A stretch of DNA of 64,000 bases, taken from the NCBI RefSeq assembly GCF_053078305.1, contig NZ_CP166879.1, one strand, 5' to 3'. A program made the translations under genes and the position numbers. Below the pieces are notes generated by a model that saw nothing but the letters and a program-made list of their open reading frames with translations, ran no database searches and was not told where the DNA came from. This document shows positions 40,875 through 41,603 of the stretch, piece by piece (position 1 is the stretch's first letter; every line of letters begins with the position of its first letter).

Positions 40875-41237
40875 TTACTCTTCCCGGCCTTTACTCATAC
40901 TTTTTTGGTCTTCATCCGGATAGTGTTTTTTTAGATATTCCAGGACGTTTTTATTGACCTTGTGTTGCGTATACACCCACCCTTTCCAGTAATCAGGCTG
41001 GTCCAGGTAAACTTCTGGCGGAATGGTGAAATCAGAAAGCGTTAACCATTCGGCTAACAGATCGGGGTTTCGTTTCTGGATCAACTGCAACAGCATAATC
41101 AGCGACATGGCAGAGGCAGGAGCCGTACTATCGCCGCTTAAATACTTCCATACTGTCGACCGGTTCGAACGAAAAAGGATCGGTAGCAATGCCCGGTCCA
41201 GATTCATTTCATTAAAAATCTTCTCAAATTCATTCAT
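40875..41237 (-). CDS. Hypothetical small protein with possible HTH (putative regulator)
   Basis: 120 aa ORF divergent from the adhesin gene; residues about 11-40 (NLDRALLPILFRSNRSTVWKYLSG) resemble an XRE-type helix-turn-helix. Lies in a segment not in the K-12 backbone as I recall it. Confidence 0.45.
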   Translation of the reverse strand: MNEFEKIFNEMNLDRALLPILFRSNRSTVWKYLSGDSTAPASAMSLIMLLQLIQKRNPDLLAEWLTLSDFTIPPEVYLDQPDYWKGWVYTQHKVNKNVLEYLKKHYPDEDQKSMSKGREE

Positions 41238-41422
41238 TTAAATTTTCCTGCCTGGCGTAAACCTCTTAAAAATTGAGATTTATCAAAGAAACGCATTTTA
41301 GCACACATCAGGAACCGCTTCACGTTTAGTCCAGAAACAGAATTTATTTCGCTTATCAAAACAAGTCTTTACTCTTTTTTACATTGAAAGAGCACGAAAT
41401 GATTTCCTTTTTTATTTATAAA

Positions 41423-41441
41423 AGAAACAATTTTTGTTTCT
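41423..41441. promoter_or_regulatory. Perfect 8-3-8 palindrome in the divergent promoter region (candidate operator)
   Basis: agaaacaa-ttt-ttgtttct in an AT-rich intergenic region between the HTH-like gene and the adhesin gene. Confidence 0.3.
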
Positions 41442-41603
41442 TATTGGTGGTGTTTACGCTTACATCAAACAAAAATGCGCTTTACATCACACAAATGGCG
41501 GCGTAGATTTCGATCAAATTGCAACGCAGATTAATTCTTATAACAACGTTTTATGTTGCTTATAGAAACAAATATGTGACTTACTTTGGACGAGAAAAAA
41601 TAC

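Follow-up and report, generated by a model that had tools for sequence, protein, structure and literature searches.

The solved structures that lie closest to the protein considered here all belong to autoregulators: the HigA2 antitoxin of Vibrio cholerae (PDB 5j9i and 8a0x) and the C-terminal domain of the antitoxin MqsA (3fmy and 3gn5), Aca proteins such as Aca2 of phage ZF40 (PDB 7vjo), and the controller proteins (C-proteins) of restriction-modification systems (C.Esp1396I and others). The protein is the product of a 120-amino-acid (aa) open reading frame (ORF) located in a 64,000-nucleotide stretch of an Escherichia coli chromosome (contig NZ_CP166879.1; hereafter the window) and transcribed divergently from an adhesin gene. 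The same gene, encoding an identical protein and likewise lying between ybbJ and cueR, is z0640 of O-island 29 (OI-29) of enterohemorrhagic E. coli (EHEC) O157:H7. OI-29 of EDL933 is a 2,643-bp island with z0638, z0639, and z0640 (Yang et al. 2018, PMC5826968), and the study that describes it handles z0640 as a hypothetical protein, without fold, DNA motif, or synteny analysis. On its predicted fold, z0640 is an uncharacterized member of the XRE family that shares a conserved, mobile module with the operon of a trimeric autotransporter. We lean, with some reserve, towards reading it as a local, probably autorepressing regulator of this adhesin module, acting through a multi-site operator composed of AGAAAC boxes. 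The system would be of an ordinary kind, a small XRE regulator beside its target. Roughly one in four complete E. coli genomes carries OI-29, and a link between the island and flagellar control has been reported before.

The 120-aa ORF is z0640 because the homology arms of the published deletion primers, which match window positions 40836 to 40874 and 41238 to 41275 (reverse strand) exactly, bracket it to the base. Its product is identical to WP_001001646.1 of O157 strain 86-24 and carries the RefSeq label “hypothetical protein.” The ORF list and base composition of the window bear out the layout given in a preliminary description of this DNA, i.e., the 120-aa ORF, the AT-rich 366-bp spacer (32% GC by our count), and the divergent adhesin ORF. 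The corresponding 1-kb region is present in 1,421 of 5,426 complete E. coli genomes, chromosomal every time, with O157:H7, O55:H7, and the enteropathogenic strain E2348/69 among the carriers. Two plasmid-collection records with z0640 (H51 and H52) are 4.9-Mb E. coli chromosomes, evidently mislabeled. Avian pathogenic and neonatal-meningitis strains also carry OI-29 (PMC5826968).

Most pairwise comparisons of z0640 gave ratios of nonsynonymous to synonymous substitution rates (dN/dS) of 0.01 to 0.1, with values of 0.25 to 0.41 in two pairs that have few substitutions. Residues 1 to 111 are invariant among six Escherichia variants, and the pattern as a whole points to purifying selection. The gene is transcribed, at 43.5 reads per kilobase per million (RPKM) in Dulbecco's modified Eagle medium (DMEM), and on attachment to HeLa cells z0640, z0639, and z0638 all drop, z0640 to 0 (PMC5826968, Table S3). 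The family is tiny: among 1.8 billion representatives it makes up 19 clusters at 50% identity, and at 90% it has about 29. Every source with a name belongs to the Enterobacterales (Escherichia, Pseudocitrobacter, Symbiopectobacterium, or Hafnia). A related-locus search with the alignment of closer homologues returned 4 species loci only.

The preliminary description credited the ORF with an XRE-like helix-turn-helix (HTH) signature and proposed a profile search and structure prediction. The two levels of analysis gave different answers. Profile searches yielded sub-threshold signals only, with no family at threshold in Pfam, NCBIfam, or PHROGs and no PHROG match to the HTH region. The Pfam model MqsA_antitoxin scored 13.5 bits on z0640 against a cut-off of 30 (E = 0.08), a match limited to profile positions 76 to 129 of 131, i.e., the HTH part, without the N-terminal zinc-binding domain of MqsA; 11 of 16 homologues gave weak matches (best E = 0.007). 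Against PDB sequences, the single sequence and the first profile returned only noise (e.g., Esa1 and cyclin E), and the wider family profile returned the HTH of the HigA2 antitoxin (E = 0.083). One homologue bears the JGI label “XRE family transcriptional regulator.”

At the level of predicted fold, the signature held. An earlier AlphaFold2 (AF2) run on a shallow alignment of close homologues was unusable (predicted local distance difference test [pLDDT] score, 57.6) and was replaced by a model built from a 21-sequence alignment that included relatives at 27 to 48% identity, with a pLDDT of 90.1 and a predicted template modeling (pTM) score of 0.78. In this model, residues 3 to 70 are predicted to form a compact five-helix XRE domain in which helices 2 and 3 are arranged as the helix-turn-helix, followed by a separate C-terminal domain. 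The top Foldseek match was the HTH domain of HigA2 (probability, 0.99; template modeling [TM] score, 0.68; root mean square deviation, 2.4 Å). Membership of z0640 in the XRE family is thus a matter of predicted fold, not of sequence.

In contrast to type II antitoxins of the HigA/MqsA type, z0640 has no co-transcribed toxin adjoining it and no conserved small partner ORF; nor does an acr gene or restriction-modification partner adjoin it. It is flanked by repetitive extragenic palindromic (REP) elements and ybbJ at its 3' end and, at its 5' end, by the 366-bp spacer and the adhesin gene. A tblastn search of 50,697 phage records with z0640 gave no match, and there was no true plasmid match. SinR of Bacillus subtilis belongs to a different phylum and has no sequence relationship to z0640, no SinI-like antagonist lies near z0640, and the resemblance of the SinR motif GTTCTYT to GTTTCT here does not indicate homology.

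Conserved pairing with the adhesin gene was assessed from the genomic context of homologues at 27 to 75% identity, which provided 11 informative locus types. In nine of these the homologue and a YadA_anchor gene are transcribed divergently, i.e., in Escherichia, Pseudocitrobacter (loci L003, L004, and L017), Hafnia (L005 and L006), and the loci L009 (with two adhesin genes), L010, L011, L020, L021, and L022. The tenth type, Symbiopectobacterium (L007, 5097 to 5621), in which truncation of the adhesin gene falls immediately ahead of the anchor, has kept the regulator gene and five AGAAAC boxes. A single metagenomic contig had no adhesin gene beside the z0640 homologue; one contig was too short to judge, and the most distant homologue, L023, on a short contig, was uninformative. 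The divergent spacer measures about 310 to 410 bp, about 360 bp in most loci. The module neighborhoods vary, including ybbJ/cueR, qmcA/fetA, qmcA/cnoX, ribE and a major facilitator superfamily (MFS) transporter gene, a site beside nrdAB, and another beside an Xre-RES toxin pair. Because the pairing is kept while the surrounding genes differ between loci, the regulator and adhesin genes move as a unit across independent genomic contexts, and this comparison provides what we regard as the strongest argument for a functional link between them.

The preliminary description also singled out a perfect inverted repeat in the spacer, which indeed lies at 41423 to 41441, its arms extending even to 9 bp (AAGAAACAA-ttt-TTGTTTCTT, 41422 to 41442). 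By itself this palindrome is weak evidence and only marginally unusual, as inverted repeats with arms of at least 9 bp separated by at most 10 bp turned up in about 6% of 2,000 dinucleotide-shuffled versions of the spacer. The broader proposal of a dedicated local regulator and operator gains from the divergent pairing and the conservation of the palindrome arms, but its focus on a single palindrome needs revision, the likely operator being an array of five AGAAAC boxes (A, B, C, C', and D). With enrichment judged against a max-statistic null over shuffles, AGAAAC ranked first among the hexamers tested de novo in the spacer (5 copies versus 0.30 expected; 4 of 500 shuffles had a hexamer as extreme). 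Across eight loci of different genera it occurred 34 times versus 2.2 expected, with 0 of 500 shuffles as extreme. A 7-mer test was not significant: AGAAACA occurs four times, but about half of the shuffles have some 7-mer at least four times. The window holds 19 copies of AGAAAC, five of them in the spacer over a span of 283 bp, and there is no other cluster. AGAAAC/GTTTCT did not come up as a known motif in a literature search.

The boxes are better preserved than their surroundings. Six other Escherichia variants match the window at each of the 30 box positions (29 aligned in E. whittamii) but depart from it at up to 56 of the 334 remaining spacer positions (up to 17%). The palindrome arms are invariant in seven Escherichia variants and the 7-bp center varies (AATTTTT, CATTTTT, ATTTTTT, GGATTAA, CAATTAA, and ATTTTTA); the Symbiopectobacterium counterpart reads AAGAAAC-N7-GTTTCC. 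Box A stands at the same offset, 48 to 53 bp from the start codon of the HTH gene, in Pseudocitrobacter, Symbiopectobacterium, L020, and L021, and the 46-bp spacing between boxes A and B is retained in L003, L004, L007, L017, and L021. More generally, distances of 46, about 90, and 141 bp between boxes are shared by loci of different genera. The AGAAAC of box D is invariant in 10 of 10 aligned sequences (A327 G328 A329 A330 A331 C332), and in O157, E2348/69, TUM13936, and E1V33 it belongs to a second inverted pair, GTTTCT-tat-AGAAAC.

Two other types of element were considered for the spacer and rejected. An invertible switch was discarded when the repeats flanking the spacer (41232 to 41247 and 41594 to 41609) proved to be the two ATGAAT start regions. 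As for an RNA element, Rfam detected nothing there, and the GUUUCU-UAU-AGAAAC hairpin is disrupted in the window strain and unconserved. Between boxes B and C lies a conserved block, GTCTTTACTCTTTTTTACATTG (41366 to 41386), and CTTTAC is also enriched in the spacers of the eight-locus set (12 versus 1.8 expected); the block and CTTTAC could represent a second promoter or a site for another factor.

For the adhesin operon, TTTACA-17-TAGATT was the sole promoter-like match of a two-hexamer scan in the region, and the block that contains it (GCTTTACATCAC...GGCGGCGTAGATT) is conserved across Escherichia, Pseudocitrobacter, and Symbiopectobacterium. The predicted extended −10 of z0640 was missed by the strict two-hexamer scan; in other genera its counterparts at the aligned place are TGgTAAAAT, TGcTATCAT, and TATAAT. 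This geometry suggests how the module might work. The regulator gene forms, with the divergent genes for the trimeric autotransporter adhesin, a lipoprotein, and a small membrane peptide, a compact four-gene module whose insertion sites in the chromosome differ among several Enterobacterales. Box A, at the −10 and at about the predicted transcription start of z0640's own promoter, would mediate autorepression; transcription is predicted to start at about 41288 (minus strand) for z0640 and at about 41516 (plus strand) for the adhesin operon. The adhesin gene is the presumed regulatory target, with the center of the AGAAAC-N7-GTTTCT palindrome about 84 bp upstream of its predicted transcription start and box D in its predicted 5' untranslated region (UTR). 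Because the boxes travel with z0640, we infer that the local protein is the most economical candidate for binding them. XRE proteins usually bind DNA as dimers on inverted repeats, and the spacer has a conserved inverted pair, AGAAAC-N7-GTTTCT.

Several observations weigh against this reading. No curated HTH sequence model (Pfam HTH_3, HTH_31, and similar; NCBIfam) recognizes the z0640 family at threshold. Four of the five boxes stand singly and face one way, an arrangement that is atypical of dimeric XRE proteins and would be more usual for a response regulator. No AGAAAC box overlaps the predicted adhesin core promoter, and both promoter positions are themselves predictions. On the genetic side, deletion of z0640 left motility and fliC/motA expression unchanged, whereas deletion of the adhesin gene changed them, and an adhesin-gene clone without z0640 complements the OI-29 deletion (PMC5826968). 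The same clone altered motility and fliA/fliC expression in K-12, a strain without the island (PMC5826968, Suppl. Fig. S10 legend); in window coordinates it begins at 41285. Because the z0640 deletion is silent and the clone lacking z0640 functions, strong control of the adhesin gene by z0640 is not evident under the published conditions. The published genetics argue against z0640 being an obligatory activator and are neutral on repression. The Hafnia module, in turn, gives a hint in favor of the local protein. Its regulator has a different recognition helix (PRNTIFNY versus NRSTVWKY), and its spacer (L005, 5693 to 6000) is without AGAAAC and instead has A[AG]GAACA boxes, including a perfect palindrome (AAGAACAT-TAA-ATGTTCTT) at the equivalent place. 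The enrichment of A[AG]GAACA is not significant by itself, and the co-variation of helix and box is suggestive only.

The main rival, which we consider unlikely, is that the boxes are read by a shared host factor, e.g., a response regulator such as OmpR. The single, co-oriented boxes would suit such a factor, as would the parallel enrichment of CTTTAC and the absence of a phenotype for the z0640 deletion. GAAAC recalls the half-sites of the ompF/ompC OmpR boxes, in which a preceding A is not required; here, however, the A is invariant. The adhesin gene is also transcribed less when osmolarity is high or the pH is not neutral (PMC5826968), which would suit this rival. OmpR itself was rejected, the published motif from chromatin immunoprecipitation (ChIP), TGTWACAW, being absent from the spacer. 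A host factor of any kind also has to contend with boxes that accompany the module to unrelated chromosomal sites, with the lack of a second AGAAAC cluster in the window, and with the Hafnia module, where the boxes appear altered together with the recognition helix, which a conserved host factor would not predict.

Alternatively, z0640 might be an autoregulator of the antitoxin, Aca, or C-protein kind that lies beside the adhesin gene by hitch-hiking. The autoregulatory nature of all its closest solved folds, the position of box A at its own promoter, and the silence of its deletion in an adhesin-linked readout fit this proposal, which we nonetheless hold to be improbable. The partner genes expected of such proteins are missing from the locus, as are phage and true plasmid matches. 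An adhesin pairing that persists at 27 to 75% protein identity and at independent insertion sites is hard to square with hitch-hiking, and outside the z0640 core promoter there are four more conserved boxes, including the invariant box D in the predicted adhesin 5' UTR. Least credible by far is that palindrome and boxes arose by chance in an AT-rich spacer next to an ORF without regulatory function. The frequency of comparable inverted repeats and of repeated 7-mers in the shuffles, and the failure of curated HTH models, could be cited in its favor, but it is contradicted by the significance of the hexamer enrichment, the perfect conservation of the boxes amid diverged flanks, the HTH fold predicted with high confidence, and a gene that is transcribed and under purifying selection.

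The proposed target has a literature of its own. Published as the transcription factor or transcriptional activator GmrA (PMC5826968), z0639 is by its sequence a trimeric autotransporter adhesin. The product of the window gene matches YadA_anchor (Pfam, E = 1.3e-11; 44.8 bits against a cut-off of 22.7), begins with a signal-peptide-like N terminus (MNTVKLSLLAVVVATAVSPSAFAG), and gives coiled-coil-type sub-threshold matches to SMC and Rad50, so that signal peptide, coiled-coil stalk, and C-terminal YadA-like anchor are all represented. In the O157 orthologue YadA_anchor is the sole significant domain (E = 1.1e-11; 45 bits), and RefSeq names it “YadA family autotransporter adhesin.” The published gmrA (z0639) primers flank and amplify this YadA-anchor gene (window, 41604 to 43388; L013, 3867 to 4883). 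An earlier paper counted the Sakai orthologue, ECs0548, among adhesion genes under the name “Saa-like protein,” the only further published name that a literature search returned. A direct DNA-binding role for the z0639 product looks unlikely, and the “putative DNA-binding domain” reported for GmrA from CDD may reflect coiled-coil likeness to SMC/Rad50. Because the gene has the sequence of a surface adhesin, the GmrA mechanism as published deserves re-examination.

The adhesin is polymorphic in length in its stalk, with 594 aa in the window and 338 aa in O157:H7 and E2348/69. The window gene has a 369-bp tandem duplication in the stalk (41901 to 42615; 1.9 copies, 94% match). In PS10-3 (L001) and EC1515 (L002), RefSeq starts the adhesin internally at 349 aa (L001, annotated 7640 to 8689 versus 6905 to 8689 in full), so that the annotated protein is missing its signal peptide and half its stalk, although the ORF is intact over its whole length.

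Table 1. Features of the z0640-adhesin module in the window and of the predicted z0640 protein
Feature	Position	Strand	Remarks
z0640 orthologue	40875..41237	minus	ATG-started 120-aa ORF from the ORF list
z0640 Shine-Dalgarno	41244..41249	minus	AGGAAA; AGGA 8 nt upstream of ATG, read from the sequence
Intergenic spacer	41238-41603		366 bp, 32% GC
Box A, AGAAAC	41287..41292	plus	2 bp downstream of predicted z0640 −10; candidate autoregulatory site
Predicted extended −10 of z0640 promoter	41295..41303	minus	TGcTAAAAT; from consensus and conservation
Box B, AGAAAC	41333..41338	plus	46 bp from box A
Palindrome	41422..41442		Core AGAAAC-N7-GTTTCT; box C (41423-41428, plus strand) and box C' (GTTTCT, 41436-41441, minus strand)
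Predicted sigma-70 promoter of adhesin operon	41481..41509	plus	TTTACA-17-TAGATT
Box D degenerate inverted partner	41555-41560		GTTGCT; unit 41555..41569
Box D, AGAAAC	41564-41569	plus	Predicted adhesin 5' UTR, 35 nt before ATG
Adhesin gene (z0639 orthologue, ECs0548, “gmrA”)	41604..43388	plus	594 aa from ATG 41604
Lipoprotein gene (z0638 orthologue)	43474-43896	plus	140 aa; ORF list; “lipoprotein” in RefSeq
Membrane peptide gene	43893-44096	plus	67 aa; ORF list
z0640 N-terminal XRE/Cro-type HTH domain	Residues 3-11, 15-22, 26-34, 41-56, 58-70		Helices of the predicted fold; 15-22 and 26-34 form the predicted helix-turn-helix, 26-34 being the recognition helix
z0640 C-terminal helical domain	Residues 74-118		Separate domain in the predicted fold

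The four genes are inserted between ybbJ (end, 40697) and cueR (44100 to 44507, minus strand); the ORFs on the ybbJ side are ybbO, cnoX, fetBA, qmcA, and ybbJ itself. Genes similar in size to the lipoprotein and membrane peptide pair lie 3' of the adhesin gene in several other genera (e.g., L003, L009, and L022). REP-type repeats occupy 40698 to 40874, between ybbJ and the 3' end of z0640, and within them, downstream of z0640, Rfam identified the REP-derived naRNA4 at 40747 to 40824 (60.4 bits); some strains have about 100 bp extra in the ybbJ-z0640 gap.

At the other end of the module, the 67-aa ORF of PS10-3 and EC1515 is separated from cueR by a hypothetical gene of 1,224 bp (L001, 9488 to 10711) that is missing from the window (44096 to 44100) and from O157:H7 and is frameshifted in E2348/69 (L014, 5686 to 6365). 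Across cueR lies a repetitive adhesin-like ORF of 5,379 aa with a C-terminal RTX-like region (47842 to 63981), adjoined by HlyD-type and ABC-type type I secretion genes (44504 to 47838). Its homologue was reported as frameshifted in enteroaggregative E. coli 042 and in O157:H7 in the 042 genome paper; in the window the ORF is intact.
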